64,000 bases of DNA from the IMG/VR virus record IMGVR_UViG_3300049855_000348, positions 1 to 64,000 of that record; one strand, written 5' to 3'. The stretch's first letter is position 1; each line of letters begins with the position of its first letter. The translations under genes were made by a program, and so were the position numbers. The stretch comes from a virus. This document shows positions 7,651 to 56,714 of this stretch, piece by piece. The notes under the pieces were generated by a model that worked only from the letters and a program-made list of their open reading frames with translations, made no database searches and was not told where the DNA came from.

Positions 7651-7678
7651 TTGACTTAGACTAAAGTGTCGCTATACT
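7651..7678 (+). promoter_or_regulatory. class I promoter (TTGACT-N16-TATACT with TAGAC and GTCGC spacer blocks)
   Basis: TTGACTTAGACtaaagtGTCGCTATACT. The downstream gene has an 18-nt leader with GGAG. Confidence 0.75.
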
Positions 7679-7702
7679 GTGCTCATCAACCAAGGAGCAC
7701 TT

Positions 7703-8575
7703 ATGGCCGTCACCGTCAAAGCCTCGTCCGACCTCCAACTCTCGCTGCGCCTGGACAGCAAGCTCGGAGCCGAGAATCCCGCCGCCTTCGGCGTGAAGCG
7801 CGGCTATGACGGTGCCGATCGCTTCTTCCTCAAGCCGGGTGAGACCTACTTCGCCGGTCGCGTGGTACGGGTTCGCAGTCATACGGTGCAGGTGATGTCT
7901 GACGTGTGGGCTGATGAGACCTTGGTTGAGGTGGCTCTGCCCAACGGTCAGGTCGAAGAGATCATCCTCGGCTACAGCGGTGATGCTGAGGTCACGGTTG
8001 ACGCCACTCCAGCGGTGCTCTCGAAGGTCGAGACCTACAAGAACGTCGCCATGAAGCTCGAACAGGCGCTCTCCAAAGCCCAGGCCGAAGTCGACCGTTT
8101 GAAGCCGGCCCTGCGCAAGGGTGGCAAGGCGCTGGCCTTCAAGGGTCGCAAGGTGAAGGTCGGTACCGAGGTCGAGATCTTCTGGTCCGGCACCGTCCGC
8201 AACAAGTTCAACGGCTGCAACGAGCACCGTCTGGGTGTGATCCTGCCCAACGGAGACAAGACCTGGGTCTCGGCTGACAACTTCGAGCCCCTGCCCACCC
8301 CGGCAGAAGTCGCCGCCTACGGGTACGCCCTGAAGTTCCTGGATCTCGCCACGGTCGCCTCCCTGGAAGGTCCGAAGGATGTTGGCGACCTGGGCAACTA
8401 CGAGGAGGCCAAGCTCGCCAACCGTGAAGCTGAAGAGGACCTGCGTCGTCTGATGCCGGCCCGGGTCCGGGCTCGGGAGTTCGTCCGTGGGCAGGATGGC
8501 GATGAGGCTGCAAGCGAGCACGAGCGCCTGTACGCAGCCGAAAGCCGTCAGGAGGTGCAGATGGGGGACTACTGA
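7703..8575 (+). CDS. hypothetical virion-module protein
   Basis: ATG at 7703 preceded by GGAGCAC. The ORF track's GTG at 7679 lies inside the promoter -10 region and was rejected. Confidence 0.6.
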   Translation: MAVTVKASSDLQLSLRLDSKLGAENPAAFGVKRGYDGADRFFLKPGETYFAGRVVRVRSHTVQVMSDVWADETLVEVALPNGQVEEIILGYSGDAEVTVDATPAVLSKVETYKNVAMKLEQALSKAQAEVDRLKPALRKGGKALAFKGRKVKVGTEVEIFWSGTVRNKFNGCNEHRLGVILPNGDKTWVSADNFEPLPTPAEVAAYGYALKFLDLATVASLEGPKDVGDLGNYEEAKLANREAEEDLRRLMPARVRAREFVRGQDGDEAASEHERLYAAESRQEVQMGDY

Positions 8576-8614
8576 GAAAGTCCCGCAAATCGACCGCAAA
8601 GGGGGTTGGCGCTG

Positions 8615-8622
8615 CTAGATAA
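8615..8622 (+). promoter_or_regulatory. CTAGATAA start-proximal box (class II motif)
   Basis: ctgCTAGATAAgccGTG, ending at the start at 8626. Confidence 0.45.
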
Positions 8623-8625
8623 GCC

Positions 8626-9813
8626 GTGCCAACCCAGTTCGCATCCAATGTCAAAATCGGCCAGGACATCTTCGTCAACGATCTGGCGGTGTTGTATCTG
8701 TCGTACCGGATGCTCTGGGATAAGGGCAGCCGGCTCGATCTGTTGATCTTCGACCCTGACTGCAAGTTCCACCGGAGCCTGGAAGGCTTGGGTGGGGCAC
8801 CGTCGCCGGCAGTCGAGTTCCAGCTTGAGTACGAACCGTCTGAGGGGGCGCTCTACAAGAACAAGGGCACCAAGCACACCCTCTACCTGATCAAAGCTGG
8901 TCAGGTGCTGACCCCGCTCGGTCTCTGCCTGCGGCTGAAGGCCGTCGACAAGGCCAGCATGCTCCTGCGTGGCACTTCGCTCAACCACAACGCCAACGGG
9001 GTGAAGGCCGGCAAGTTCGTCGAGGCTCTGGCCGGTCGTGTCGGCATCACCGCCAAGATCCCCGACACCGGGGACAACGCCGGCTCTCACCGGGCGGTAC
9101 GTGCCAAGCCGATTGACGCCATCCGCTACGAACTGGACCGAGTGCTCTCCGGTGGTGGCAAGCCCATCAGTCTTCAGTTCGACGACCGTACCGATCAGCA
9201 GGTCCTGACCGGTTTCGAGGAACTGTACGACGCTCAGACTCAGCTACTCACCGACTCTCTCACCGGTGGCACCTACAGCTACGGCGTTGGCATCAAAGAG
9301 AACAATGGAGATTCGGTTTCTTACGGTAACGCCATCTACCATTGGGAACTCGATCAAGACTATCGTCCGGCCATCTGGGGTCACAAGGTCAGCATCGACC
9401 ACCTGAACTCGAAGGGCGAGCAGGTCACCGGTGAGATCTCGGCGAAGCTCTCGAAGAAGCTCGGCATCCAGGGTGACATCCTCGATGCTGGTTCGTCTCG
9501 CCTGCACCTGCCGATGAATGGTCCGGACTCAGCCACCTCAGACGACTACTACGCCAAGGCGGTGATGGTGAACTCAGTCTTCCAGACTGAGATGGCAGTG
9601 ACCAGTGGATGGATGCTGATCGACTCGGATTACAAAGCCTACGACGATCCTACTATTCTGAACCGGAAGCATGTAGTCGTTGCTCTAACAGGCGGAACCA
9701 ACGAGAAGAGTGGGAATGCGATCATTCCCAAGCAGGCGGTGATCATGGGCTTCGAGCATCGTATGACACGCAAGTCGGCCTATACCAGGGTCCACCTGCG
9801 TCGGGGTAGCTAA
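8626..9813 (+). CDS. hypothetical tail-module protein (immediately upstream of the tape measure gene)
   Basis: 395-aa ORF with a GTG start. Confidence 0.6.
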   Translation: MPTQFASNVKIGQDIFVNDLAVLYLSYRMLWDKGSRLDLLIFDPDCKFHRSLEGLGGAPSPAVEFQLEYEPSEGALYKNKGTKHTLYLIKAGQVLTPLGLCLRLKAVDKASMLLRGTSLNHNANGVKAGKFVEALAGRVGITAKIPDTGDNAGSHRAVRAKPIDAIRYELDRVLSGGGKPISLQFDDRTDQQVLTGFEELYDAQTQLLTDSLTGGTYSYGVGIKENNGDSVSYGNAIYHWELDQDYRPAIWGHKVSIDHLNSKGEQVTGEISAKLSKKLGIQGDILDAGSSRLHLPMNGPDSATSDDYYAKAVMVNSVFQTEMAVTSGWMLIDSDYKAYDDPTILNRKHVVVALTGGTNEKSGNAIIPKQAVIMGFEHRMTRKSAYTRVHLRRGS

Positions 9814-9814
9814 G
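9807..9814 (+). promoter_or_regulatory. TAGCTAAG variant of the class II box
   Basis: ggTAGCTAAGccATG, ending at the start at 9817. It contains the TAA stop of the upstream gene. Confidence 0.35.
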
Positions 9815-14081: not shown

Positions 14082-14109
14082 TTGACATAGATTGTGGTGT
14101 CGCTAATAA
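14082..14109 (+). promoter_or_regulatory. class I promoter, upstream member of a tandem pair
   Basis: TTGACATAGATtgtggtGTCGCTAATAA. Confidence 0.6.
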
Positions 14110-14134
14110 ATTGGCATGCGCCCACAACCAGTCG

Positions 14135-14162
14135 TTGACTTCGACCCTTTTGTCGCTATACT
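14135..14162 (+). promoter_or_regulatory. class I promoter with leaderless geometry
   Basis: TTGACTTCGACccttttGTCGCTATACT. The ATG at 14169 lies exactly 7 nt after the -10 hexamer. Confidence 0.75.
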
Positions 14163-14168
14163 GTGAGC

Positions 14169-18055: not shown

Positions 18056-18308
18056 AAGAACCTACGACACACTTGCCAAATTGTTCTTGCAACTGAAATC
18101 AGTCTTGCTACACCTCCACGTACCAGCCATGAGACCTCTCACCTCCATACCAGCCGTTCGCGCCACCAAGTGGCAAGCGAAGCCCATGACCAAAACGGTC
18201 AATGGCGCACAGGGTTGCTTTGGAGTGACAACTGAACGCAATCAGGCCGATCACATTCCGGAACCAGGGTTCATGTAGCAGACAAGGGTAAAACCTCCAA
18301 GCCACATG

Positions 18309-18350
18309 AACCCCGGGACCAAAAAGTCTCGGGGTTCTTCTTTTTCTGAT
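18309..18350 (+). terminator. terminator-like hairpin with a T-rich tail
   Basis: AACCCCGGGAC-caaaaa-GTCTCGGGGTT followed by CTTCTTTTT. Confidence 0.55.
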
Positions 18351-18490: not shown

Positions 18491-18565
18491 CGTCGAGTAT
18501 TTCAGCGGAAGAATATCTGCATGACATGCAGAAGGTCGGTGGTTCGATCCCACCCTCGACGACCA
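18491..18565 (+). tRNA. tRNA-Val(GAC)
   Basis: 75 nt. Acceptor cgtcgag/ctcgacg, T-arm ggtgg-ttcgatc-ccacc, anticodon arm tctgc-atGACat-gcaga, CCA encoded. Confidence 0.7.
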
Positions 18566-18570
18566 AACAA

Positions 18571-18648
18571 TGCGGAGTAACTGGAGATGGAACCAGCCCA
18601 GCCTCATAAGCTGAACAAACGTGTGTTCGAGTCACACCTCCGCAACCA
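18571..18648 (+). tRNA. tRNA-Met or Ile2 (CAT)
   Basis: 78 nt. Acceptor tgcggag/ctccgca, D-stem ctgg/ccag, anticodon loop ctCATaa, T-arm gtgtg-ttcgagt-cacac, CCA encoded. Confidence 0.7.
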
Positions 18649-18650
18649 TT

Positions 18651-18839
18651 TGCAAGGACCTCTCTGCCCACCATCTCGATCCTAAGAAGAAAGAAGACAA
18701 CATCGGTACGATGGTCAGAAGAAGAGTGGCTATCAAAACTTTGGAAATCGAACTGCAAAAGTGTCTCTGCGTGTGTGAGAACTGTCATCGCAAGATCCAT
18801 GCAGGTATCATCAAACCTTTTCTCAGTGCTGGATCATGA
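18651..18839 (+). pseudogene. HNH endonuclease remnant (HNH core only, no credible start)
   Basis: The frame reads ...SAHHLDPKKKEDNIG...CLCVCENCHRKIHAG.., the H-H...N...CxxCH..H core. There is no ATG upstream of the HH, and the ORF-track start lies inside the tRNA-Met. Confidence 0.5.
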
Positions 18840-18886
18840 CCGAACGCCTGTGGTCATTCCCTGGCGGGCACTCGGATTCTTCACAT

Positions 18887-18963
18887 GGTGGTCGTAGCTC
18901 AATGGATAGAGCACTGGACTGTGGCTCCAGCGGCTGTGGGTTCGACTCCCATCGATCACACCA
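18887..18963 (+). tRNA. tRNA-His(GTG)
   Basis: An extra 5' G (G-1), acceptor gtggtcg/cgatcac, D-arm gctc-aatggata-gagc, anticodon loop ctGTGgc, CCA encoded. Confidence 0.8.
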
Positions 18964-19047
18964 GTTCATTGTGCGGAGTACGCGCCTGACCCAGGCAAGA
19001 GGGTTTGCTCTAACCTCCCAGAGAAGAACGGGAGGTTGCTTCGGCAT

Positions 19048-19121
19048 GGCTTGGTCGCTCAACGGCAGGGCGCTGGTTTGAAAAACCAGAGACGAAGGTT
19101 CGACTCCTTCTCAAGCCACCA
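19048..19121 (+). tRNA. tRNA-Phe(GAA)
   Basis: 74 nt. Anticodon arm ctggt-ttGAAaa-accag, T-arm gaagg-ttcgact-ccttc, CCA encoded. Confidence 0.8.
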
Positions 19122-19133
19122 TCTCCTTCTCAC

Positions 19134-19211
19134 GGTCGGTTCACTGCATGGTGCAGTGTGCGCAAGGACAGTCCCCTAAGCACGGCGGTTCGATTCCCCG
19201 GCTGACCACCA
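19134..19211 (+). ncRNA. tRNA-like RNA A: normal acceptor, D-arm, T-loop and CCA but no canonical anticodon arm
   Basis: Acceptor ggtcggt/gctgacc and D-arm actg-catggtg-cagt. The 26 nt at the anticodon position form only gtgc/gcac around an 18-nt loop, gcAAGGacagtCCCCTAAgc. No 5-bp/7-nt arm is found in any register. Confidence 0.5.
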
Positions 19212-19221
19212 TTTTTTTCAT

Positions 19222-19294
19222 CGGCTGGAATAGGTGCGCGTAAGGCATCAGATCCCCTCAAGCGATGGAGGTTCGATTCCTCCCTGGCCGACCA
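19222..19294 (+). ncRNA. tRNA-like RNA B: 7-bp acceptor, T-arm and CCA with a 38-nt non-cloverleaf body
   Basis: Acceptor cggctgg/ctggccg and T-arm ggagg-ttcgatt-cctcc. The body contains cgc-GTAAGGcatcagatCCCCTCAA-gcg. Confidence 0.5.
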
Positions 19295-19407
19295 AGTACG
19301 ACTTCTCGGGTTCCGCAAGGAACGATCGTCCTACTGGCTACAACGGTGAAAATCCGGTGGATGCCAGAGGTGGTGGGATGGCTCACCAAATAAACTGAGA
19401 CTCATAA
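19295..19407 (+). ncRNA. structured spacer RNA (GNRA-capped helices), homologous at its 3' end to 19485..19592
   Basis: Helices gttcc-GCAA-ggaac, ctggc...gccag enclosing ccgg-tgaaaat-ccgg, and ggtg...cacc, followed by AAATAAACTGAGACT. Confidence 0.4.
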
Positions 19408-19484
19408 GCACCGATCGGCTGGTGGAAAAGCTACCTCCCTTTCAAGGAGATTCTTCGCGGGTTCGACTCCCGTTCGGTGTACCA
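19408..19484 (+). tRNA. tRNA-Glu(TTC)
   Basis: 77 nt. Acceptor gcaccga/tcggtgt, anticodon loop ctTTCaa, T-arm gcggg-ttcgact-cccgt, CCA encoded. Confidence 0.75.
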
Positions 19485-19592
19485 ACGACGGAGCACAGTG
19501 ATCGAAAGATCGACCGGCTAGGCAACTCGCAAGAGTGCTCGAAAGGGCGGAGTCTAGTGGGGTGTAAGCACCTCGAATAAACTGTGAGTTAT
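19485..19592 (+). ncRNA. structured spacer RNA (GAAA- and GCAA-capped helices)
   Basis: Helices gatc-GAAA-gatc, actc-GCAA-gagt, gagcac...gtgctc and ggtg-taag-cacc, followed by GAATAAACTGTGAGTT. Confidence 0.4.
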
Positions 19593-19666
19593 GGTCCTTT
19601 CTGTCAGTGGCAGGCAGCCTGATTCTCAGTCAGACAACGTCGGTTCGATTCCGACAAGGACTACCA
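19593..19666 (+). tRNA. tRNA-Glu(CTC)
   Basis: 74 nt. Acceptor ggtcctt/aaggact, D-arm tgtc-agtggca-ggca, anticodon loop ttCTCag, T-arm gtcgg-ttcgatt-ccgac, CCA encoded. Confidence 0.65.
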
Positions 19667-19670
19667 GCAA

Positions 19671-19766
19671 GAGCGGGACACTGGTTCGAGGCCAGTCATC
19701 GCAAGATGTAGCTCAGGGTGAAAACGTAAGGCATCAAACCCCCAAGTAATCCGGAAGAGCACGCTC
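19671..19766 (+). ncRNA. circularly permuted tRNA-like RNA X1 (T-arm, then GCAA-capped acceptor-like hairpin, then D-arm; the termini form the anticodon-like stem)
   Basis: GAGCG-ggac-ACTGG-ttcgagg-CCAGT-CATC-gcaa-GATG-ta-GCTC-[42-nt insert with GTAAGGcatcaaaCCCCCAAG]-GAGC-a-CGCTC. Every helix was read directly. Confidence 0.55.
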
Positions 19767-19771
19767 TATTT

Positions 19772-19849
19772 GTTCCTGAGGACTAACGGCTAGGTCACCT
19801 CCCTGTCACGGAGTCATTCAAGTGGGTTCAACTCCCATCAGGAACGCCA
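19772..19849 (+). tRNA. tRNA-Asp(GTC)
   Basis: 78 nt. Acceptor gttcctg/caggaac, anticodon loop ctGTCac, T-arm gtggg-ttcaact-cccat, CCA encoded. Confidence 0.75.
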
Positions 19850-19853
19850 ACAT

Positions 19854-19927
19854 CCACGCTTCGTCTAATGGCAGGGCACCGATCTGATACGTCGGATACC
19901 AAGGTTCGATTCCTTGAGCGTGGACCA
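19854..19927 (+). tRNA. tRNA-Ile(GAT)
   Basis: 74 nt. Acceptor ccacgct/agcgtgg, anticodon arm ccgat-ctGATac-gtcgg, T-arm caagg-ttcgatt-ccttg, CCA encoded. Confidence 0.75.
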
Positions 19928-19941
19928 CTTCAGTTTCACAT

Positions 19942-20016
19942 TGTGGGATGGCCTATGTGGTAGGGCACCCGGTTGTTACCCGGACTATACTGGTTCGACT
20001 CCAGTTCCCACAGCCA
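19942..20016 (+). tRNA. tRNA-Asn(GTT)
   Basis: 75 nt. Acceptor tgtggga/tcccaca, anticodon loop ttGTTac, T-arm actgg-ttcgact-ccagt, CCA encoded. Confidence 0.75.
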
Positions 20017-20021
20017 CTTTT

Positions 20022-20097
20022 GGGGTCGTAGCTCAATTGGCAGAGCACCTGTTTTGCACGCAGGATGTTAGCGGTTCAAGTCCGCTCGATTCCACCA
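20022..20097 (+). tRNA. tRNA-Ala(TGC)
   Basis: 76 nt. G3:T70 wobble present, anticodon arm cctgt-ttTGCac-gcagg, CCA encoded. Confidence 0.8.
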
Positions 20098-20167
20098 CGC
20101 GGGAGTAATCTGAGAAATCAGAGAGAATTACCAGCCTCACAGCCGGCAAGGAGTAGACTGTGGTTTT

Positions 20168-20243
20168 GGGGAGTTAGCTCATCTGGTAGAGCGCGAGCAT
20201 GGCATGTTCGAGGCGAGGAGTTCAAGTCTCCTACTCTCCACCA
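20168..20243 (+). tRNA. tRNA-Ala(GGC)
   Basis: 76 nt. G3:T70 wobble present, anticodon arm cgagc-atGGCat-gttcg, CCA encoded. Confidence 0.75.
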
Positions 20244-20602
20244 CTTTCAATCATACGGGCGGCGATATCTCAGAAGCGTAAGGATGATCCCCCAAGTTAT
20301 GAGAAAATCCTATGGGGTGAAAGCCCTCAACTGTCCACCACTCGATCGGAACGTCAGTCGCAGCGTAAGGCTTTTATCAAATCCCCAAGCTGTGCAGTAA
20401 CGCAACTGCTGGTGAAAGACCAGCCTGATCACTCTTCAAACGAAACCCTGGCGGTGAAAAACCGCTTCCTCGGCGCATCCCCTACGTTGGTCTACCTCTG
20501 AAGTTTATCGACCCAGGGCTTCGTGTTTCTGCTAGCTAGATTCATGGGTACCATCAGCGACATCGACGATCAACTCTACGTTCAGCACATCAAGTAACGC
20601 AT
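20244..20602 (+). ncRNA. about 360-nt non-tRNA structured region rich in GNRA-capped helices, with two copies of the GTAAGG..CCCCAAG loop motif
   Basis: Helices gggt-GAAA-gccc, gctggt-GAAA-gaccagc, gcggt-gaaaa-accgc, gcagt-aacgca-actgc and cagc-[GTAAGGcttttatcaaatCCCCAA]-gctg. The only ORFs are short and overlap tRNAs. Confidence 0.4.
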
Positions 20603-20677
20603 ACGTCGATAGCTCCAATGTAGAGCGACGGTTTCCAAAACCGTTGGTTGGGGGTTCAAGTCCCTCTCGACGTGCCA
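20603..20677 (+). tRNA. tRNA-Trp(CCA)
   Basis: 75 nt. Acceptor acgtcga/tcgacgt, anticodon arm acggt-ttCCAaa-accgt, CCA end encoded. Confidence 0.8.
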
Positions 20678-20682
20678 TTCAC

Positions 20683-20757: not shown

Positions 20758-20760
20758 CAC

Positions 20761-20835: not shown

Positions 20836-20843
20836 TTTCACAT

Positions 20844-20922: not shown

Positions 20923-20927
20923 TTCAT

Positions 20928-21009: not shown

Positions 21010-21014
21010 TTCAC

Positions 21015-21090: not shown

Positions 21091-21092
21091 AC

Positions 21093-21356: not shown

Positions 21357-21360
21357 TCAT

Positions 21361-24619: not shown

Positions 24620-24647
24620 TTGACATAGACCTTTTGGTCGCTAATAG
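24620..24647 (+). promoter_or_regulatory. class I promoter with leaderless geometry
   Basis: TTGACATAGACcttttgGTCGCTAATAG. The ATG at 24654 is 7 nt after the -10. Confidence 0.75.
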
Positions 24648-26231: not shown

Positions 26232-26527
26232 ACAGACACGGCATCAAAACGACAACGAAGGAGGTTTTCTTTTTCTCCTTCAAGGGTGACTCTACCGTCA
26301 GTTCACTCGATCAGATCACCCTTCCCCCAGCAATGGGACTCAGTGATCAGATGTTTCACCGTTTTGGCGAATGGCTCAAGCGTGAGGGTCATGCCTGGGA
26401 ATACCTTTCAGAGGAACGACTCTGTCAGCTATCGATTGAGTTCTTCAACCTTGCTCTCATGCAGCATGAGAAGCCACGTCGCTTCGATCGGATGGCTACC
26501 AAGGAAGAGATCAAAGTAGGGTGTTGA
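26228..26527 (+). CDS. hypothetical protein (start uncertain)
   Basis: The GTG at 26228 overlaps the upstream stop. The gene's own stop is the TGA inside the TTGACT of the next promoter. Confidence 0.45.
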   Translation: MNRHGIKTTTKEVFFFSFKGDSTVSSLDQITLPPAMGLSDQMFHRFGEWLKREGHAWEYLSEERLCQLSIEFFNLALMQHEKPRRFDRMATKEEIKVGC

Positions 26528-26551
26528 CTTAGACTGAATGGTCGCTATACT
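26524..26551 (+). promoter_or_regulatory. class I promoter with leaderless geometry
   Basis: TTGACTTAGACtgaatgGTCGCTATACT followed by ctgggcATG. The ATG at 26558 is 7 nt after the -10. Confidence 0.8.
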
Positions 26552-28861: not shown

Positions 28862-28889
28862 TTGACTTAGACCAAAAGGTCGCTAATAT
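28862..28889 (+). promoter_or_regulatory. class I promoter with leaderless geometry
   Basis: TTGACTTAGACcaaaagGTCGCTAATAT. The ATG at 28896 is 7 nt after the -10. Confidence 0.8.
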
Positions 28890-29166: not shown

Positions 29167-29343
29167 ATGGCCCACCAGTGGGTACATCGTCCCCATACCC
29201 TTGAGCACTTCCAGAAGCCGGAACAGCGGACGTGCTCCGTCTGTGGTGCTCAGCAGGAACTGGTTGTTGAACAGGCTTGGATGCGGGTTGTCTCTCGTCG
29301 CTGGCTGCCGCTGGCTGGCCGGTGCAAGATCAAGAAGTCTTGA
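29167..29343 (+). CDS. possible 58-aa Cys-containing protein (below the ORF-track cutoff)
   Basis: The ATG follows 1 nt after the upstream stop. The frame ends on the TGA inside the TTGACT of the next promoter, as seen for other genes. It competes with the 29201..29398 track ORF. Confidence 0.35.
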   Translation: MAHQWVHRPHTLEHFQKPEQRTCSVCGAQQELVVEQAWMRVVSRRWLPLAGRCKIKKS

Positions 29344-29367
29344 CTTAGATCAAAGAGTCGCTATACT
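29340..29367 (+). promoter_or_regulatory. class I promoter (leadered; the downstream gene has an AAGGAAG Shine-Dalgarno)
   Basis: TTGACTTAGATcaaagaGTCGCTATACT. Confidence 0.75.
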
Positions 29368-36738: not shown

Positions 36739-36766
36739 AGTATAGCGACCTTTTGGTAGCTGTCAA
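36739..36766 (-). promoter_or_regulatory. class I promoter with leaderless geometry
   Basis: Minus strand reads TTGACAGCTACcaaaagGTCGCTATACT followed by tccggcATG. Confidence 0.75.
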
Positions 36767-39217: not shown

Positions 39218-39245
39218 ATATTAGCGATCTTTTGGTCTAAGTCAA
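39218..39245 (-). promoter_or_regulatory. class I promoter with leaderless geometry
   Basis: Minus strand reads TTGACTTAGACcaaaagATCGCTAATAT followed by atgggcATG. Confidence 0.75.
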
Positions 39246-39847: not shown

Positions 39848-39875
39848 AATATAGCGACTTTTTTATCTAAGTCAA
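39848..39875 (-). promoter_or_regulatory. class I promoter with leaderless geometry
   Basis: Minus strand reads TTGACTTAGATaaaaaaGTCGCTATATT followed by tgaaagATG. The ATG at 39841 is 7 nt after the -10. Confidence 0.75.
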
Positions 39876-41709: not shown

Positions 41710-41737
41710 TTGACTTGGTCATGATAGCGACTACTAT
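41710..41737 (+). promoter_or_regulatory. class I-related promoter (TTGACT-N16-TACTAT), leadered
   Basis: TTGACTtggtcatgatagcgacTACTAT. The downstream ATG at 41756 is preceded by GAGGAAA. Confidence 0.55.
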
Positions 41738-41755
41738 GTCGCCAACGAGGAAACG

Positions 41756-43592: not shown

Positions 43593-44246
43593 ATGGACTT
43601 CATCGGCTTCGTCAATCGTCTGAACGAAGGTTTCGTCAGCGTCCCCAAGCAGCCATGGAAGACCAAGGAAGAAGCCCTGGCCCTGGCTGAGAAGGCGCTG
43701 CCGGCCTTCCGTCGTATCCTGATGAAGGCTGCGCCGGCTGATTCCGTGGTGAAGTACGCCATCAAGCCATCAGAGTCGATTGATGACAAACTCCAACGCT
43801 GGAAGCCTGCCGGTCGTGGTATCGACACCATGTTCGACATGCTGCGTGGTGCCATCCTGGTCCGTGACGGTGAGGAGATCCAGGACACCATTCATCGCCT
43901 GAGCCGTGGGCCAGTGGTCGCCAAGTTCGAGCACAAGGATGAGCCGAAGGATGCTCTGGGCTACTACGGCAGCTACCACATCGACCTGTACCTGCCTGAG
44001 TTCAAGGTGGTGGCTGAGGTCCAGGTGATGACCAAGAAACTCTGGGCGTACAAGAAAGAGGCGCACCGGATCTACAAGGAGCAGCGCGGTAAACCTCAGA
44101 TCGACCCTGCTGCTGCGAGCAAGTCACGGGAACTCTACCGTGTCGGCAACACGCCGAAGAAACTTACTGCGCAGAAGCCTGAGAAAGCCGATCGCGCAAT
44201 GCTGCAAGCTGCCCGTAGAGGCGAGCACCCGGACCTATCTGATTGA
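43593..44246 (+). CDS. RelA/SpoT-type small alarmone synthetase-like nucleotidyltransferase (SAS/toxSAS-like)
   Basis: 217 aa. It carries KPSESIDDKLQR, DMLRGAILV, GYYGSYHIDL and AEVQVMTKKLWAYKKEAHRIYK, in the order of the synthetase-domain motifs. Confidence 0.65.
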   Translation: MDFIGFVNRLNEGFVSVPKQPWKTKEEALALAEKALPAFRRILMKAAPADSVVKYAIKPSESIDDKLQRWKPAGRGIDTMFDMLRGAILVRDGEEIQDTIHRLSRGPVVAKFEHKDEPKDALGYYGSYHIDLYLPEFKVVAEVQVMTKKLWAYKKEAHRIYKEQRGKPQIDPAAASKSRELYRVGNTPKKLTAQKPEKADRAMLQAARRGEHPDLSD

Positions 44247-44757
44247 TGCCAGCCTTGCGGGATGCCAGCAGCAAAGCCTCGGCACCTTGAAGGTAGTTCT
44301 TCACCCATTCTGGCTTCATGGTCTTCGACCCGTCCAGTAGGTTGTCGTAGCGATCGGCGAGCTTGATCAGCACCGCATCCAACGACTTGCCCGAGAAGCC
44401 AGCGATGTAGGCGTTCTTGTCCTTGGTCCCCGGAGGCTTGGTCAGTTCACGCACCAGCTTTTGCACCCGTTCAGGGAACTCGGAGATGTCAGCCTTGGTG
44501 TCTTCGAGCACGTCGTGGAGGTAAGCCGCTGCCAGCACCTCTTTGTCCACCACACCAGCGTTCTGGAGGATCTTCACTACCCGTTCAGGGTGGACGATGT
44601 AGGGGTTCTTCCCATCCTTCCGGATCTGACCTTCGTGGGCGATGGTGGCGAATGAGCGAGCGTGTTCCAGCAGGTCGCGTTGACCATTGCCAGCGATGTG
44701 GTCCATCACATCGTGGTCATCGTTCGAGAGGGCTTCGCAGAGGATCTTCTTTTTCAT
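44164..44757 (-). CDS. HD-domain (p)ppGpp hydrolase-like protein (small alarmone hydrolase, Mesh1/SpoT-type)
   Basis: 197 aa with ATIAHEGQIRKDGKNPYIVHPERV and AAYLHDVLEDT. Its 3' end overlaps the convergent synthetase gene by 83 nt. Confidence 0.7.
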   Translation of the reverse strand: MKKKILCEALSNDDHDVMDHIAGNGQRDLLEHARSFATIAHEGQIRKDGKNPYIVHPERVVKILQNAGVVDKEVLAAAYLHDVLEDTKADISEFPERVQKLVRELTKPPGTKDKNAYIAGFSGKSLDAVLIKLADRYDNLLDGSKTMKPEWVKNYLQGAEALLLASRKAGINQIGPGARLYGQLAALRDRLSQASAQ

Positions 44758-44766: not shown

Positions 44767-44794
44767 ATGATAGCGTTAGTTTTGTCTAAGTCAA
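44767..44794 (-). promoter_or_regulatory. class I promoter (3-nt leader)
   Basis: Minus strand reads TTGACTTAGACaaaactAACGCTATCAT, with the ATG at 44757. Confidence 0.65.
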
Positions 44795-44811: not shown

Positions 44812-44838
44812 TTGCGTCTACCAAAATAGCGATAGAGT
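44812..44838 (+). promoter_or_regulatory. weaker divergent promoter for dnaE (TTGCGT-N15-TAGAGT)
   Basis: The ATG at 44846 is 8 nt after the -10. There is no Shine-Dalgarno. Confidence 0.4.
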
Positions 44839-44845
44839 GATCGCC

Positions 44846-47800
44846 ATGCCGACCCTTTCCTTGCATTCCCATACTGTCTACTCCCAACGTGACTCGATCG
44901 TAAAGCCTGATGCAATAGCTACCAAGATCAAAGCCAACGGCGGGACGCACTACGCCGTTACCGACCACGGCACTGCCCAGGGCTGGCTGGCCGTCCGTGA
45001 TGCCTGCAAGAAGGCCAAGTTGATCCCGATCTATGGGGTCGAGCTTTACGTCAACGACTTCATCCTCGTTTTCAAGGAGATCCAACGACTCCGTGATGCC
45101 GCCCCCAAGAAGGAAGCCCCACAGGTCGTATTGCAGGCGATCAGGGACAAGATCCTGCCTCTGATGTCCCCAGCACAGGCCACCTACTTCACGTCGAACC
45201 TGGACGATCCCAAGGACCCTGTCGCAACCGCCAAGCAACTGATGATGCGCCTGGGCTACGGCTACGAGCATCTGGTGGCTGTGGCCGTCACCGCCCAAGG
45301 CCGGGAGAACTTGATCCGCCTACACAACAAGGGGCAGACCGACGGCAACTACTTCAAGCCGCAGGTGACCACCGACCAATGCCTTGCCGCTGCTGAGGGC
45401 ATCATTTGGACGACCGCCTGCATGGGTGGTCCGATCGCCAAACGTTTCCGCTACGACCCGACTGGCCAGGAGGCGCTGAATTACCTCAACCGCTGGCAGG
45501 CACACAAGGCGAACTTCTACCTGGAGGTCCAGCCGCTCGACCTACTCGACCAACGCCGGAACAACAAGCGCCTGATCGCTGTCTCCAAGGTGACCGGCTT
45601 CCCGCTGGTCCTGTCACAGGACAACCACCACCTGAACGAAGAGGACTGGGTTGCTCACCGTGCGCTGATGCTCTCTCAGAACGACCGTACGATCGAACAG
45701 ATCGAAGAGACCTATGCCTACCAGGGGAGCCTTTTCACCTTCACCGAACTGAAGCGCAAGCTCGGCGTCTCCACCACGTGGCAAGCGCAGGAGATCATCG
45801 AGAACGAAAAGATCGAAGTGAGGATCCCGGCTGGTCACCACTACGGGGATGTGAAGCTCCACTGGCGTACCAATGACGATGTCCGCAAACAGTGTGAGAC
45901 CACCAACCCTGAGTTGATGCCGATCATCGACGAATGCTTCGCCACCACCGATCGACTCTGCCAGGAGATCAAAGAGATCCCCTGGTCAACCAAGCATCGC
46001 CTGACGCACTATGACGACGCCAGGGCACAAGCGTTGGCAATCTGCCATCAGCGTCTGAAGGACCTTGGCTTCGATCGTGAGACCGTCAACGATGGTACTG
46101 TGGTTGTCACTGAAGGTGAAAAGCCGTCAGAGATCAAGGCCAAGTATCTCGCTTGGTTGGAGAAGGAAGACAAGGTTATCACCGCCTGTGGATTCTGGGA
46201 TTACATCTGGACGCTCTATCGAGTGACCAAGGCTGTGCAGGACGAAGGTATCCCAGTCGGCTACGCTCGTGGCTCTGGCGGTGGTTGTCTCGTGATGTTC
46301 CTCCTTGGTATCATCCGTGTGAACCCAGTGAAGTATGGTCTGTACTTCGAGCGATTCCTGAACCCGGCTCGTCTCGGTTTGGATCCGAAAACCTTGAAGC
46401 GTGTGAAGGAGATGGCGTCCTGCCCTGACGCTGACCTGGACTTCTCATCGATCAGTCGCAAGCGGGTCATCGAGATCACCGAACAGATGTTCGGCAAGGA
46501 GTTCGTGGTTCCTGTTGGAACCGTCGGCGAAGCGAAACTCAAGACCGCCATGGCCGATCTGTGCCGCGTACTCAAGATCACGCAGGCTACCTACATGCCG
46601 GTCTCGAAGGAACTGCCTGAAGACATCAATGGCGTCATGACCTTCGAGGATGCGATGAAGGTGCCGGCATTCGCCGAGTTCATCGCCAAGCATGAACTCC
46701 TGTCCAAGCTGTTGGCTCCGCTCATCGGTGTGATCCGTTCTACTGGTCAACACGCTGGCGGTGTCTGCATCGCCGACGTTCCGGTTGCCAATGCTGTGCC
46801 GGTGATCCGTGCTGGTGCCAAGGATGGTGGCAACATTGTCACCGGCTTCGGTGAGTCTGGTGCTGAGCGTGCTCTTGAATCCATCGGCTTCGTGAAGTTC
46901 GACTTCTTGGCTACTGATACTGTCGACCATGTCTCTTTGTGTGCCCGTTCGCTCTACGAAGAACATCTGGCCAACGGCGGTCAGCCGTGGGTGAAGCCTG
47001 GGGAAATTCTGCTCTACCCTGAGCAAATCCCACACTTCACCGAGAACGATCCCAACGTGATGAAGGCGATCTTCCATACCGGCAACACCGACGGCATCTT
47101 CCAGATGGAAGAACAGATCGGTAAGCAGATGGTGCAGTTGGTGAAGCCAGACACCGTCGATGAAATCTCCGACATCAGCACCATGATCCGTCCTGGTTGT
47201 TTGCAGGCGCATTGTACGTGGTTCACCAATGCCACCGGTGCGGTTGAGAACAAAGTCGGCAGTGGTCTCCACTTCGCTTACGCTGCTCGTAAGTTCGAGC
47301 GTGAACTCAACCCACCACCAGATCTACCTCAGGAAATCTTGGAGGTCTTGAAGCCAACGCACTACTGCTGCATCTACCAGGAACAGATGATGTTCCTGAT
47401 TGAGATCGTCACTGGTGGCAAGATGTCACTCGGTGAAGGTGACATCTACCGTCGTGCCGTCGAGCACTCGGCGAAGGGTGTTCCGGCAGCAATCGAGACG
47501 CTGGCCAAGATGGAAGGCGAGATGAAGGCTGCCGGTGCCTACTCACCGGACATCGTCGAGACTGTCTGCACGATCATCAAGGGTGGTGCGGCCTACTCAT
47601 TCAATAAAGCACACTCGCTGTCCTACTCGCTCTTCAGCTACGGTCAGGCGTGGTTCAAGCATTACTACCCGCACATCTTCCTGGCCAGTCACGTGAGTCT
47701 GCTCGCAGCGAAGAACAAGCTGGAGAAGGCTCACAAGATCATCAACAACGGTCGCTCGATGGGTATCGAGATCAAAGCACCACACGTCCTCCACTCGAAA

Positions 47801-48604: not shown

Positions 48605-48877
48605 ATGGGATTACCAGCCGCTCGCATCGGTGACACCTACGCCATGCACACCGACATGATCCTCACCGGATCACCGAACGTGTTGGTCAACGGCAGGGGT
48701 ATTCACCGGGTGATGGACATCTTCATGTGTCCGATCGTTGGCATCGGCATGACCGTTATGGGTTCGCAGACGGTCAAAGTGAACAACCAGTTTGCCGCCC
48801 GGGTGATGGGGGTCGGTATCTGTGCCGGCCAAAACCTCATTGCTACAGGGAGCCAAGACGTATCAATCGGAGGTTGA
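48605..48877 (+). CDS. PAAR-domain spike-tip protein
   Basis: 90 aa. AARIGD...GSPNVLVNGRGIHRVMD...GSQTVKVNN..AARV matches the PAAR repeat pattern. The stop is the TGA inside the next TTGACT. Confidence 0.75.
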   Translation: MGLPAARIGDTYAMHTDMILTGSPNVLVNGRGIHRVMDIFMCPIVGIGMTVMGSQTVKVNNQFAARVMGVGICAGQNLIATGSQDVSIGG

Positions 48878-48901
48878 CTTAGACCAGTTGGTCGCTATAC
48901 T
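48874..48901 (+). promoter_or_regulatory. class I promoter with leaderless geometry onto a GTG
   Basis: TTGACTTAGACcagttgGTCGCTATACT followed by ctgggcGTG. The GTG at 48908 is 7 nt after the -10. Confidence 0.75.
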
Positions 48902-50161: not shown

Positions 50162-50169
50162 CTAGATAA
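50162..50169 (+). promoter_or_regulatory. CTAGATAA start-proximal box (class II motif)
   Basis: gCTAGATAAgcgcATG, ending at the start at 50174. Confidence 0.45.
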
Positions 50170-50173
50170 GCGC

Positions 50174-52764: not shown

Positions 52765-53856
52765 GTGCGCTTCCATCCGCAGGTGGCCAGGATCCTGAAG
52801 GAAGCCGTCGGTGAGACCAAACTCCCCGTCAAGGTCTACGCACCGAATCCAACCAGTGCTCGTGGCTTCTTCCCTGAACGCAATCACCCCAACCTGAGCA
52901 TCGAGTTCAAGCCGGTTGGCGGTGGTAAGCACATCGAGCTTGGTTCCGGTCGTGCCACCCACGTGCAGTATTCTGGTGAGCACTTCGGAGGCACTTCCAA
53001 CCAAGCCGAGTACGCCACCAAGAAGCGGTGCTTGATCATCTCAGCCATCGGCTCGAACTCTGGTGGCCGATACACGGCTGTGGCCCTCGATTACATCTCC
53101 AAGAACGGCGGCAAGCTGATGGGCGAAGGGTACTTCTCCTGGCAGGGCCAGCGGGCCAGCGGTGGTACCAACGACGAGATCATCGACCGCTTCTTCGCTA
53201 AGATGAACAGCCTGTTCGGGCTGCTCAACCATCGCATCCCAAATCGTAAGGCGGATGCTGACCTGTTCCGTGCTGCCGGTCTGGAGGTCGAGGAACAGCC
53301 CGCAGAGGCGATTCCAGACATCATCAAGGATCACCCCACCCTACTGCCAGCCACGAAGGTCCTGACGGCTCTGGGAGCCAAGCTGGACACTCCTCCTGGT
53401 ATCACCTTCGAGATCACCAAGATCCCGACTGACTTGGGCCACCAGCACGTCATCCAGAAGGCTCTGGATGACCTGAAGGATGCCAAGCTGCTCGACTACG
53501 ATCTGGCCTACCAGGGGCCGAAGATCTCGAAGATCACGATCATGAGGGAAGGTGTTGACTTAGACCGTAAGGTCGCTATAATCGAGAGCATGAGAAACCG
53601 CGACATTATCGCCACCGCCAACAAGGGAAAATACGGTAACGGTCTCAGGATCGTCTGTCAGGGCATCACCTTCGTGACGATCGAGGCGACCGATGGTAGC
53701 GGCTCGATCGCGGTGGCCGAGGGTGAGAAGGAGTTCTCGCTCTGCGACTACGAGAAGGGCGAGTTGGTCGACAAGATCCGCACGTTGGCCGGCAAGGTCA
53801 CTCGTCAGGGTATCACCGAGACTATCCGCGAGTACGCCAAGCCCATCAACGGGTGA
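52765..53856 (+). CDS. hypothetical structural protein; contains an in-frame class I promoter copy
   Basis: 363-aa ORF with a GTG start. The promoter is translated as ...GVDLDRKVAII... Confidence 0.55.
   Translation: MRFHPQVARILKEAVGETKLPVKVYAPNPTSARGFFPERNHPNLSIEFKPVGGGKHIELGSGRATHVQYSGEHFGGTSNQAEYATKKRCLIISAIGSNSGGRYTAVALDYISKNGGKLMGEGYFSWQGQRASGGTNDEIIDRFFAKMNSLFGLLNHRIPNRKADADLFRAAGLEVEEQPAEAIPDIIKDHPTLLPATKVLTALGAKLDTPPGITFEITKIPTDLGHQHVIQKALDDLKDAKLLDYDLAYQGPKISKITIMREGVDLDRKVAIIESMRNRDIIATANKGKYGNGLRIVCQGITFVTIEATDGSGSIAVAEGEKEFSLCDYEKGELVDKIRTLAGKVTRQGITETIREYAKPING
53555..53582 (+). promoter_or_regulatory. class I promoter embedded in frame within a coding sequence
   Basis: TTGACTTAGACcgtaagGTCGCTATAAT. 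The in-frame ATG at 53590 is 8 nt after the -10. Confidence 0.6.
53590..53856 (+). CDS. possible nested 88-aa product (C-terminal part of 52765..53856) from the internal promoter
   Basis: The in-frame ATG lies at leaderless distance from the embedded promoter. Confidence 0.35.
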   Translation: MRNRDIIATANKGKYGNGLRIVCQGITFVTIEATDGSGSIAVAEGEKEFSLCDYEKGELVDKIRTLAGKVTRQGITETIREYAKPING

Positions 53857-53859: not shown

Positions 53860-54177
53860 ATGCAACAGGTCGTCGAAGTTCTTCCAGACGAGTCGATCCC
53901 GGTGACCGAGTGGGAGAGGGCGTTGGAAGGTTTCAACAGCTACCAGCAGGCTGAGATCCGAAATGCCATGGCCTACCATTCGCGGCTTGGCTGGTCACCC
54001 AAGTTGATCCAGCGTGACCGTCCAGGCAAGCCGAGCACCTTCGCGCTTCGTTCTGGCAGTTCGGCGACGCCAACAGACAAGCCTTTCGAGGTGCCGTTCG
54101 AGTTCTCGATCTGCAACGTCTGCCATACCGCTACCTGCGAGCACAAGGAAGGAAGACCGGACTGGCCTGCTAGATAA
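53860..54177 (+). CDS. hypothetical protein
   Basis: 105-aa ORF. Its TAA stop lies inside the next CTAGATAA box. Confidence 0.55.
   Translation: MQQVVEVLPDESIPVTEWERALEGFNSYQQAEIRNAMAYHSRLGWSPKLIQRDRPGKPSTFALRSGSSATPTDKPFEVPFEFSICNVCHTATCEHKEGRPDWPAR
54170..54177 (+). promoter_or_regulatory. CTAGATAA start-proximal box (class II motif)
   Basis: ctgCTAGATAAgccATG, ending at the start at 54181. Confidence 0.45.
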
Positions 54178-54180
54178 GCC

Positions 54181-55956
54181 ATGATCAGGGATCTCTACCA
54201 AAAGCTCACCGAAGAGGACAAGAAGGACTCTCCGAAGAAGAAGACTGATCGTCCTGAGAAGGAAGAGCCAGTTCTCATCATCAAGTTGGTTGATGGCAAG
54301 AAGATCCGTGACGGTGTCTGTGTCGATTTCATCGGTGGTGGTCACAACCTCGCCTATCCCGACATCATCCCCAAGGGTGAGATCTGGATCGAACAGGATC
54401 TGTCACCGGAAGAGCAGACCGACATCCTGGTGCATGAACTCGTCGAATTCGCGCTCATGTCGAAGGCCGACATGACCTACACGCCGGCCCACACCTTCGC
54501 CAACAAGATGGAGAAGGTGTTCCGTGGCTTCGAGGGTCGCTGGAAGATCCGTGGTGCTCCGGAGGCCGGTGAGGCGATCGTCAAGGGCAAGGAGAAGGCG
54601 GAGGTAGAAGAGAAGGAGAAGAAGGTCGCCGAGTCTCTGATCAACGAGACCTACACCAATGGTCTGATCTACTTTCTCAAGTACCTCGAAGCCGGCATCG
54701 ACGTGTACGACTTCGCTCATGAACTTGAAGCCTTCTTCGAGTCCAAGGGAATGGACCATCCGGAAACCTATGATCCCGATGAGCCATTCGAGTTCTTGGA
54801 GTCGAAAGAGTTTGAGTCATTGAAACCGAAGTTCCAGAAATACCTCGAAGAGAACATTCGTGCTGATGATGCTGCGTTGCCGACTTACCTCTACCTCGAC
54901 AGCGCCAAGCTGGTCCCACGCAACACGTGGTTGGTCCACTTCTCTGATGACGCTGATGACATTGCCACCAGTGGCTTCACCTATGGTGCTGAAGACTACA
55001 CCAAGATCGGCCTGACTACTCACTTCAGCGACAAGGTCCGCAAGAAGGGTCCTGGTTGGAACTTCGCCTTCAAGCTGGACAGTCGGTATTCAACTCGTGC
55101 AGCGGACAGTGGAAAATACGGCAAGCATGCCGTTCTCTTCCAGTGCGCTGGCGTTGAAGCTCATCATAGTGGTGACAGCGAAGATCAAGTCGTCTTCTGG
55201 GGTCCTGCTGCACACAATCGTTACCTGCTGATGAAGGATGGCGAAGGTAATTGGTGCGTTCGTCATGCACGCACGCACCGTGTTCTCTTTCAATCGGAAG
55301 AGTTCGATGATGTCGCTGTCTGGGTAACAAAGAACGAACATCAGTACCGCAAGGTCATCACCAACGACCTGCCGCAGAAACCAATCTTCCCGACGCCGGT
55401 CAAAGACCGTGCTCGGATGCAAGCCAAGCCTTCGGTACCGATGCCGAAGTCGATTCAAGAAGCCAAGAAGTGGGACACCAAAGGTGGACGCTTCATCACT
55501 CCAGAAGAAAAGAATGACAAAAAGAAAAAGCGCCCGTCCTACAAAATCTACAAGGGCATCCCGACCAATCCGCCGCAGGCTATTCAAGTAGCACAGGGCA
55601 TCTCCGAGAGCGAAGAGAACCAGTCACTGCTGGTGATCGTCAACAAGTATGCCTCGAACAAGCATCCTGATGACCATGTGCCAGAGGACTACGACTGGGC
55701 TCGTGACAAGGCGTTCAACGTCAGCAGCCTGGAGCACATGATGCCCGGTGGCATAGCTGGCTGGAAGTCTTGGCTCGCCGATGAGGTGAAAGGTGTTCCA
55801 GGTCAGTGGGACAAGCTCGCCACGACAAAGAAGATCGATGACCCAGTCATCATCTCCCCAGGCCACATCTGGGATGGCTGGCATCGCATCGCTGCTGCCA
55901 TCGTCAATGGACACGCAACCATTCCGGCGATCGTAGGAAGACTCCATGCTCGGTAA
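54181..55956 (+). CDS. large hypothetical protein with a C-terminal ParB/sulfiredoxin-like nuclease-fold motif
   Basis: 591 aa. The C-terminus reads ...IWDGWHRIAAAIVNGHATIPAIVG, a DGxHR...IP pattern. Confidence 0.5.
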   Translation: MIRDLYQKLTEEDKKDSPKKKTDRPEKEEPVLIIKLVDGKKIRDGVCVDFIGGGHNLAYPDIIPKGEIWIEQDLSPEEQTDILVHELVEFALMSKADMTYTPAHTFANKMEKVFRGFEGRWKIRGAPEAGEAIVKGKEKAEVEEKEKKVAESLINETYTNGLIYFLKYLEAGIDVYDFAHELEAFFESKGMDHPETYDPDEPFEFLESKEFESLKPKFQKYLEENIRADDAALPTYLYLDSAKLVPRNTWLVHFSDDADDIATSGFTYGAEDYTKIGLTTHFSDKVRKKGPGWNFAFKLDSRYSTRAADSGKYGKHAVLFQCAGVEAHHSGDSEDQVVFWGPAAHNRYLLMKDGEGNWCVRHARTHRVLFQSEEFDDVAVWVTKNEHQYRKVITNDLPQKPIFPTPVKDRARMQAKPSVPMPKSIQEAKKWDTKGGRFITPEEKNDKKKKRPSYKIYKGIPTNPPQAIQVAQGISESEENQSLLVIVNKYASNKHPDDHVPEDYDWARDKAFNVSSLEHMMPGGIAGWKSWLADEVKGVPGQWDKLATTKKIDDPVIISPGHIWDGWHRIAAAIVNGHATIPAIVGRLHAR

Positions 55957-56683
55957 GCCATGGCTGGAGATCTTGACGGAGTCGCACGATCCAGAACCCG
56001 AGGTGACTTGGGTACCATGCGAAGCCTGGGAAGATGACTGCCTCGTCTTGCCGGCTGTCGCCGATGAACAGATCATCACCGAGGGCAATGCTGCCGACGT
56101 GCTCAAGAAGCTGCGTGCTGACGGTTGGTCAACCTCTGGTCGTTCCCTGTCCAGAATCCTCAAGGAAGTCGACCCACGCTTCATCAACCACGCTGAGCAC
56201 TTGAAACGCCTCACGCAGGGCGGTGTGCGCCCCGATGGGACACCTTTCCCTGGTGGTGGTGGTCTGCGGTGGGGTGGACTGCTGATCTCGGCCAAGGAAG
56301 CCCTGCTGCGCGTCCTGGGCTCGTATGAATACAACGACACTCAGGAGCAGTACCAGCAGACCATCCGCTTCGCCAACTTCCACAAGATCGCCAAGGCTCG
56401 TGGAGTGAACTGGACCGAGAAGGCTCGGATGCTGATGAACGACCGGATCAAGGTCCACTGCGACTGCCCGGCCTTCCGGTACTTCTACGCCTACACCGCC
56501 ACCAAGAAGGGCTTCGGCCTGTACCCGGAACTGCGACCCAGCGAGAAGACCAACAAGCAGAAGAACGGCGGTATCTGCAAGCACCTGAATCTGGTCTTGG
56601 CCCACCTGCCTTCCCAGGCACAGAGCATCGCCGGTGAGATGAAGAGCCACTTCGGGGTGAAGATCAAGAAGAAGACCAAGTAG
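55946..56683 (+). CDS. SWIM zinc-finger protein
   Basis: 245 aa with VHCDCPAFRYF...GGICKHLNLVL, a CxC...CxH pattern. Confidence 0.55.
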   Translation: MLGKPWLEILTESHDPEPEVTWVPCEAWEDDCLVLPAVADEQIITEGNAADVLKKLRADGWSTSGRSLSRILKEVDPRFINHAEHLKRLTQGGVRPDGTPFPGGGGLRWGGLLISAKEALLRVLGSYEYNDTQEQYQQTIRFANFHKIAKARGVNWTEKARMLMNDRIKVHCDCPAFRYFYAYTATKKGFGLYPELRPSEKTNKQKNGGICKHLNLVLAHLPSQAQSIAGEMKSHFGVKIKKKTK

Positions 56684-56686
56684 GTG

Positions 56687-56714
56687 TTGACTTAGACTGA
56701 AAGGTCGCTATAAT
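56687..56714 (+). promoter_or_regulatory. class I promoter with leaderless geometry
   Basis: TTGACTTAGACtgaaagGTCGCTATAAT followed by ctgggcATG. The ATG at 56721 is 7 nt after the -10. Confidence 0.8.

Follow-up and report, generated by a model that had tools for sequence, protein, structure and literature searches.

Repeated phage promoters, leaderless mRNAs and promoters with an embedded operator are three known themes. The stoperators of cluster A mycobacteriophages (L5, Bxb1) are 13-bp asymmetric sites dispersed away from promoters, and the MotA-type (middle) promoters of T4 have no −35 element, carrying instead an activator box near −30. For the Thermus phage phiYS40, Sevostyanova et al. 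(2007) reportedly described middle and late transcripts that are leaderless. In Deinococcus-Thermus, a −10 element adjoining the open reading frame (ORF) drives leaderless genes, as documented experimentally in Deinococcus (PMC12340547), and in mycobacteria a 5′-terminal ATG or GTG is both necessary and sufficient for leaderless translation (PMC4633059). T4-type phages possess mobile promoter modules, the promoter-early stem-loop (PeSL) cassettes (PMC2839356, PMC4122927). Here we analyze the 64,000-nt stretch of viral DNA IMGVR_UViG_3300049855_000348 (positions 1 to 64,000, hereafter the window), where the three themes appear united in one compact, unusually regular cassette of 28 bp, TTGACTTAGAC-N5-GGTCGCTATAcT, in a phage lineage without cultured relative, a combination that we regard as useful more than surprising. 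The best reading of the cassette is a family of promoters of the primary-sigma (sigma70) type, from which initiation is predicted, and we consider it probable that these are leaderless promoters which also hold the site of a dimeric regulator and serve as recombination joints.

The cassette family and its promoter hexamers

The window contains 14 copies of the cassette. When the pattern was searched with up to three mismatches, nine matches appeared versus 0.00 expected, and a weight matrix built from the copies returned the 14 sites at 28-46 bits, any other site on both strands (128 kb) scoring below 8 bits; the top score in 20 shuffles was 9.9 bits. All 14 copies are co-oriented with the next gene downstream. 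The window shows no enrichment of sigma70-like matches in general; the top-scoring ones, which agree at 10-11 of 12 hexamer positions, are almost all cassettes. The original prediction had counted about 16 copies, and its sequence is indeed present at every position given there; 14 of them fit the matrix, but those at 41710 and 44812 score below 8 bits and belong to a different promoter class. Relatives of the phage (L003-L008, L046-L048, L050 and L051, with about 50-82% protein identity) were reached via homologues of three window proteins, and they keep the cassette before the gene family of 39211, the HD-domain gene, the family of 48908 and the position of 56721, as well as inside a 363-aa ORF. 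The copies in the window are the following:

7651..7678, plus strand: leadered cassette, with AAGGAG before ATG 7703 and an intrinsic terminator hairpin upstream at about 7604-7630
14082..14109, plus strand: cassette forming the upstream half of a tandem pair; ATG 14116, 7 nt past the −10, opens a 16-codon mini-ORF
14135..14162, plus strand: cassette with predicted leaderless ATG 14169 of a 113-aa gene
24620..24647, plus strand: cassette with TAATAG as −10 and predicted leaderless ATG 24654 of a 72-aa gene
26524..26551, plus strand: cassette of exact consensus, whose TGA in TTGAC serves as stop codon of the upstream ORF; predicted leaderless ATG 26558
28862..28889, plus strand: cassette with predicted leaderless ATG 28896 of an 89-aa gene
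29340..29367, plus strand: leadered cassette, with AAGGAA before ATG 29395; the orthologue at L003 14506 is leadered too
36739..36766, minus strand: cassette of variant B (TTGACAGCTACC...GGTCGCT) with predicted leaderless ATG 36732; the preceding ORF ends at the TGA of TTGAC
39218..39245, minus strand: cassette with predicted leaderless ATG 39211; the N-terminus MSNSTA is kept in 22 homologues
39848..39875, minus strand: cassette directly after the minus-strand tRNA array, with predicted leaderless ATG 39841
44767..44794, minus strand: cassette of the HD-domain gene, ATG 44757 lying 10 nt past the −10; the L046 and L048 orthologues show the 7-nt geometry
48874..48901, plus strand: cassette of exact consensus; the PAAR gene stops on the TGA in TTGAC; predicted leaderless GTG 48908, which is ATG in orthologues
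53555..53582, plus strand: cassette in frame inside the 363-aa ORF 52765-53856, with ATG 53590 lying 8 nt past the −10
56687..56714, plus strand: cassette with predicted leaderless ATG 56721 of a 57-aa gene; the following gene varies among relatives

Promoter elements and start geometry were assessed in a pool of 33 non-redundant copies taken from the window, the window's extension and the relatives. The block TTGAC, close to the −35 consensus TTGACA, is present in 30-33 of the 33 copies at each position; in the −10 element, close to TATAAT, the first T and the A that follows are invariant (33/33 each) and the final T occurs in 30, and the spacer measures 16 bp in all copies. With −35 TTGACT, a 16-bp spacer and −10 TATA(C/A)T as their parts, the cassettes would be strong promoters for bacterial RNA polymerase in its primary-sigma (sigma70-type) holoenzyme form. 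The claim that upstream genes often terminate on the TGA inside TTGACT proved correct for three of the 14 copies (gene ends 26527, 48877 and 36763), so that 'often' was an overstatement, and at three further copies the upstream gene ends on the TAG of a conserved TAGGTG flank.

Start-codon geometry and predicted leaderless transcripts

The gap separating the −10 hexamer from ATG or GTG is 6 nt in 20 of the pooled copies and 7 nt in another seven; in the other way of counting, 27/33 copies (26 ATG, 1 GTG) have the first base of the start codon 7-8 nt past the −10. At gaps of 6-7 nt the bases upstream of the start codon are the promoter itself, and no Shine-Dalgarno sequence is possible in the predicted transcript, whereas clearly longer gaps come with AAGGAG, AAGGAA or AAGGA leaders. 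A Shine-Dalgarno sequence restricted to the longer gaps is the pattern expected for leaderless transcripts. In the window, ten copies have their start 7 nt past the hexamer, those at 53555 and 44794 have it at 8 and 10 nt, respectively, and those at 7651 and 29340 are leadered. The nine starts that had originally been placed exactly 7 nt after the hexamer all hold, the copy at 14082 (ATG 14116) adds a tenth, and the entry for 29340 has to be corrected to that of a leadered copy. At the scale of the whole window, a TANNNT motif lies 5-8 nt before the start of 10 of 73 genes, eight of these ten being cassettes, versus 1.8% of internal ATG/GTG codons.

The position of the start codons could be examined further by comparison with homologues. 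The ATG or GTG codons that would lengthen the ORFs (7679, 14163 and 39217) sit in or directly after the −10 element, and the resulting N-terminal extension is not conserved in homologues, 22 of which were compared for gene 39211. In this family conservation begins at MSN across the 22 homologues, and 17 of the 22 public gene calls start there; it is the only family for which homology shows the protein to begin at the proposed codon. Of the revisions of annotated starts put forward in the original prediction, that from 39217 to 39211 matches the N-terminal conservation just described, that from 44837 to 44846 agrees with a public gene call of 1251 aa, and that from 7679 to 7703 places the start behind a proper Shine-Dalgarno sequence, while the proposed sub-60-aa gene at 56721 (57 aa) is called in the public assembly too. 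The tandem cassettes at 14082 and 14135 are joined by the mini-ORF 14116-14166 (plus strand, 16 codons), itself predicted to be leaderless, which runs through the second cassette and ends just before ATG 14169.

Taken together, the geometry, the co-orientation with downstream genes, the N-terminus of gene 39211 and the conservation of the promoter blocks support the leaderless-promoter interpretation advanced at the outset, and we infer that the cassettes give rise to leaderless mRNAs. The first transcribed base would be the A or G of the start codon, 7-8 nt past the −10, so the mRNA would have neither a 5′ leader nor a Shine-Dalgarno sequence and ribosomes would load on the 5′-terminal AUG. 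This suggests a host with efficient leaderless translation, which would narrow the host search. The arrangement resembles the leaderless genes of Deinococcus-Thermus and Actinobacteria, in which a TANNNT-type −10 is fixed 6-7 nt before ATG or GTG without a Shine-Dalgarno sequence and a −35 at the right distance boosts expression. It differs from them in being a single 28-bp element, present in many copies in a viral genome and equipped with a full −35 consensus and with conserved blocks in its spacer.

A particular case is the copy at 53555, which the original prediction had listed among the other plus-strand copies and which in fact lies in frame inside a conserved ORF. The 363-aa ORF 52765-53856 is conserved over its full length in nine homologues, and the intragenic cassette is present in L046, L048, L050 and L051. 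The cassette encodes GVDLDRKVAII in the window and GVDxDxxVAII across homologues, the next methionine, Met276, being invariant. An internal, predicted leaderless transcript would yield an in-frame 88-aa C-terminal product from ATG 53590. In a structure model of the 363-aa protein (mean predicted local distance difference test score, pLDDT, 76) the promoter maps to a linker of low confidence that precedes a distinct C-terminal domain; the model gave no fold match in PDB. In-frame nested genes, with an internal ribosome-binding site, are known from lambda C/Nu3 and T7 4A/4B. The copy at 53555 resembles these pairs in that a C-terminal protein would arise from an internal in-frame start within a conserved ORF of the structural module, but here a predicted internal promoter and a leaderless mRNA take the place of the internal ribosome-binding site.

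Other start-adjacent elements were observed beside the cassettes. A predicted leaderless-type promoter at 21435-21469 (plus strand), before the homing-endonuclease-like gene 21470, consists of TTGCAT, AGCGAT, TAGCAT, 6 nt and ATG, and thus contains an AGCGAT half-site again. A distinct motif, (G)C-TA(G/A)NTA(A/G)(G/A), is located 2-3 nt ahead of the start codon (ATG or GTG) in many large genes, most of them structural, that have no Shine-Dalgarno sequence. Of its 19 occurrences in the window, 12 are start-adjacent; when window and relatives are pooled, 23/24 open an ORF of at least 60 codons, and the motif is kept at orthologous sites. At five sites or more the motif does not coincide with the stop codon of the upstream gene, and a normal −10 element was ruled out for TAGATAAG, which lies only 2-3 nt from ATG. 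Examples of this second motif are:

8616-8623, plus strand: second start-adjacent motif
9807-9814, plus strand: second start-adjacent motif
50163-50170, plus strand: second start-adjacent motif
54171-54178, plus strand: second start-adjacent motif
57148-57155, plus strand: second start-adjacent motif
3113-3120, minus strand: second start-adjacent motif
5034-5041, minus strand: second start-adjacent motif
37080-37087, minus strand: second start-adjacent motif

Likewise, a promoter-like family of its own was observed in the Tunturiibacter phage Tunturi_5 (L052, PP885688, 117-158 kb), a cultured jumbo phage of Acidobacteriota that has only a distant helicase match to the window. This family, AATC-N~19-GGTATTAG, has 16 copies on the coding strand versus one on the other, and in eight of them an ATG follows after 5-7 nt, which is a leaderless geometry; the paper describing the phage makes no mention of it.

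Spacer half-sites, gene swaps and rival explanations

Positions 6-23 of the cassette read (TTA or AGC)GAC-N6-GTCGCT, an 18-bp pseudo-palindrome extending from −29 to −12, and the perfect palindrome AGCGAC-N6-GTCGCT is found in L006 12433, L046 9690, L048 9690 and L008 8413. The window has 14 occurrences of the string GTCGCTA; cassettes account for 12 of these and the 41710 promoter for one more. Both GTCGCTA (positions 18-24) and GAC (positions 9-11) are conserved at least as well as the hexamers, in line with the near-invariance originally noticed for two spacer blocks. Identities between the window and its relatives, calculated over 15 orthologous pairs, were:

TTGAC: 95%
GAC: 96%
GTCGC: 89%
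−10 hexamer: 84%
N6: 62%
Discriminator: 47%
Upstream 30 nt: 52%

Judged from these alignments, the block-wise pattern shows selection on the blocks and not recent copying. The same half-sites recur in a second class of promoters, those at 41710 and before DnaE, which have sigma70-like hexamers and the half-sites shifted by about 12 bp, so that the palindrome brackets the −10:

41710..41743, plus strand: second-class promoter, TTGACT-N16-TACTAT, with the palindrome AGCGAC-TACTAT-GTCGCC (41726) around the −10; leadered, GAGGAA before ATG 41756
44812..44845, plus strand: second-class promoter of DnaE, TTGCGT-N15-TAGAGT, with the palindrome AGCGAT-AGAGTG-ATCGCC; ATG 44846 lies 8 nt past the −10

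At the DnaE promoter the stretch TAGCGATAGAnTGrTCGCC-ATG is kept in L046 and L048, and the spacer upstream of it has diverged. The proposal that an added factor contacts TAGAC and GGTCGC comes out strengthened, since the blocks are the half-sites of a pseudo-palindrome; some copies have it in perfect form, and two other promoters have it again around their −10. We infer that a dimeric DNA-binding protein, probably phage-encoded, occupies this site. As the putative site overlaps the core promoter, a repressor is more likely than an activator, and such a regulator would switch all copies off, or on, together. In some respects the arrangement is reminiscent of the stoperators of L5 and Bxb1: a short conserved site of the protein-binding type, repeated many times in line with transcription and overlapping the early promoter. 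Unlike those dispersed sites, the 18-bp pseudo-palindrome is found almost exclusively inside promoters.

Comparison with relatives shows that the cassettes mark gene swaps, although the swap and border cases are few in number. After the conserved cassette at 56687 the window carries the 57-aa gene and L046 carries unrelated genes of 68 and 65 aa, whereas in L050 the equivalent cassette is fused directly to an 82-aa gene with no extra gene; moreover, the cassette-bounded block at 34-39.9 kb is inverted with respect to L003 and L006. Since the copies are near-identical, they would act as recombination joints at which promoter-plus-first-gene modules are exchanged or inverted. This recalls the PeSL cassettes of T4-type phages, near-identical early-type promoters that are repeated before small genes of unknown function and flank the places where related phages differ by insertion, replacement or rearrangement. 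In the window, cassettes 24620, 26524, 28862, 36766, 39245 and 39875 precede ORFs of 72-317 aa without significant Pfam match, and Pfam and PHROGs searches were blank for nearly all cassette-driven genes. However, only one of 11 tested copies (7651) has a terminator hairpin with a U run upstream, the other ten folding no better than shuffles, and an identification as PeSL proper was rejected for lack of a stem-loop. The cassette also differs from PeSL in that the promoter is fused to the start codon and some copies are found in the structural module or within a gene.

Several points weigh against the combined reading of the cassette as a sigma70-type leaderless promoter with a dimeric-regulator site. 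The left half-site is mostly TTAGAC, with only GAC in common with the right arm, and in about 80% of copies the centre has an A-rich strand, so the site lacks the symmetry of a simple homodimer operator; for the same reason, A4 and T4 centres were dropped as proof of a symmetric operator. No sigma factor or DNA-binding protein, helix-turn-helix proteins included, was found among about 50 proteins screened in the window, which covers about 30% of the genome. Many other genes in the window have no Shine-Dalgarno sequence either, which makes its absence weak evidence alone, and the sigma specificity of the host and its capacity for leaderless translation are assumed. Finally, the −35 drifts in relatives (TGGACT, TTGAGT, TTGTGT) and TAGAC and GTCGC are kept, a behaviour that also fits a factor or sigma reading the blocks directly. 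It is therefore conceivable, though in our view rather unlikely, that it is the transcription machinery itself which recognises the spacer blocks, through a phage sigma factor or a co-activator redirecting the host polymerase in a T4 MotA/AsiA-like manner, the cassette being then a phage-specific promoter of the middle type instead of a host promoter combined with an operator. Besides the persistence of TAGAC and GTCGCTATA where the −35 degrades, such an explanation could account for the position of GTCGC at −17 to −13, abutting the −10 where sigma region 3 contacts DNA, for its hexamer-like conservation and for the asymmetric spacer, and the jumbo phage Tunturi_5 does encode its own sigma factor and have its own promoter family. 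Yet the −35 TTGAC is present and well conserved at orthologous sites, unlike in T4 MotA-dependent middle promoters; the existence of perfect palindromes and the reappearance of the same palindrome around the −10 of two other promoters are hard to fit to fixed polymerase contacts; the orthologous copy at L003 12462 has GGGTCTATACT without GC; and no sigma gene was seen in the window, which represents about a third of the genome.

Considerably less probable is that the blocks have no function of their own and that their likeness reflects common descent, with spread and homogenisation of a mobile promoter module by recombination or gene conversion. Gene content does change at cassettes, a cassette-bounded block is inverted with respect to relatives, and mobile modules of this kind exist in T4-type phages (PMC2839356, PMC4122927), but N6 and the discriminator are far less conserved than the 89-96% of the blocks between genomes only about 50-80% identical in protein, and the copies within one genome differ at those same variable positions, which homogenisation would not selectively spare. 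We give still less credence to the possibility that the mRNAs are not leaderless, transcription starting elsewhere or the cassette being some other oriented protein-binding site, with the nearness of ATG due to compact gene packing. Many genes of this phage without a Shine-Dalgarno sequence carry the other start-adjacent motif, so translation without Shine-Dalgarno occurs even on leadered RNAs; against this stand the canonical hexamers at 16-bp spacing, the gap of 6-7 nt in 27/33 copies with Shine-Dalgarno sequences in the exceptions, and the ORF-lengthening codons buried in or next to the −10 without conserved extensions.

On the preferred reading, a sigma70-type leaderless promoter family with a regulator site, the cassette would provide an annotation rule for this phage clade, pointing to true gene starts, real small genes and operon-heading genes, as well as a predicted ready-made strong promoter for hosts capable of leaderless translation. 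Should a regulator bind at the spacer, dozens of promoters would come under the control of one protein, which would be a simple handle on the phage timing programme. The swaps seen at cassettes carry the concept of modular evolution driven by repeated promoters over to a phage lineage of a very different kind. A more ambitious version, which we regard as doubtful, is that one dimeric factor controls perhaps 50 leaderless cassettes genome-wide in a freshwater jumbo-phage clade, the cassettes being portable joints that move promoter-plus-first-gene modules from genome to genome and that in one instance lie within a gene, giving rise to a nested protein. If true, this one-factor version, combined with the release-factor-like phage gene in the window and with TARNTARR, the second start-adjacent motif 2-3 nt before ATG, would point to phage-specific translation initiation without reliance on Shine-Dalgarno sequences.

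Genome context and neighbouring genes

The source of the window is an uncultivated freshwater jumbo phage with a myovirus-type baseplate. Its genes include those for DnaE, a helicase, baseplate J/W/V, PAAR and a tape-measure-like protein. Sequence identical to the window was found in a 79-kb Logan contig and in a 220-kb JGI contig, the latter indicating that the window is part of a jumbo phage genome of at least 220 kb, and the contig of one relative originates from the Lake Mendota freshwater time series. No close phage relative appeared among 50,697 phage records (megablast, tblastn), the best protein identity being 24-28%, and two structural proteins of the window had zero matches in that collection. 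The distant relatives L009 (40% identity, GC content 66%) and L049 are without the cassette, and an exact-pattern scan of IMG/VR gave no match. Scans for the cassette returned two single, unrelated matches in JGI metagenome contigs and 34 single matches in GTDB genomes of unrelated taxa, some of them in a conserved Bacteroidota coding motif; such numbers are about those expected by chance, so the cassette is not a host-genome feature and gives no clue to the host.

The window holds 33 tRNA genes in two arrays, at 18491-23006 (plus strand) and 39879-40769 (minus strand). Before each array stands a GC-rich hairpin, GAACCCCGG...CCGGGGTTC, with a T run behind it, and the two hairpins (18308-18337 and 40809-40835) are almost the same. 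Homing-endonuclease-like genes are contained in the plus-strand array, and orthologues of 22974-23678 in relatives have HNH domains. Adjoining this large array, the minus-strand gene 23897-24460 encodes a 187-aa protein with RF-1 (E = 1.3e-26) and PCRF domains that looks like a truncated phage-encoded peptide-chain release factor; no suppressor tRNA was seen among the window tRNAs.

Other observations concern neighbouring genes. A low-GC island at 30000-34000 (43-46% versus about 56%) carries minus-strand genes for a glycosyltransferase, an FkbM methyltransferase and DUF6625, including the 953-aa ORF 31148-34009, and L003 holds a different gene set at this position. An Acb2/Tad1-like anti-CBASS gene is located at 40983-41564. 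The convergent genes 43593-44246 (plus strand) and 44164-44757 (minus strand) overlap by about 80 nt; the former has a weak RelA/SpoT match and the latter an HD_4 domain, which points to a possible role of the pair in (p)ppGpp metabolism. Finally, the 591-aa protein encoded by 54181-55956 (plus strand) has longer homologues in relatives (718-1002 aa), with ART-PolyVal ADP-ribosyltransferase or acetyltransferase domains as in phage 'polyvalent' proteins.

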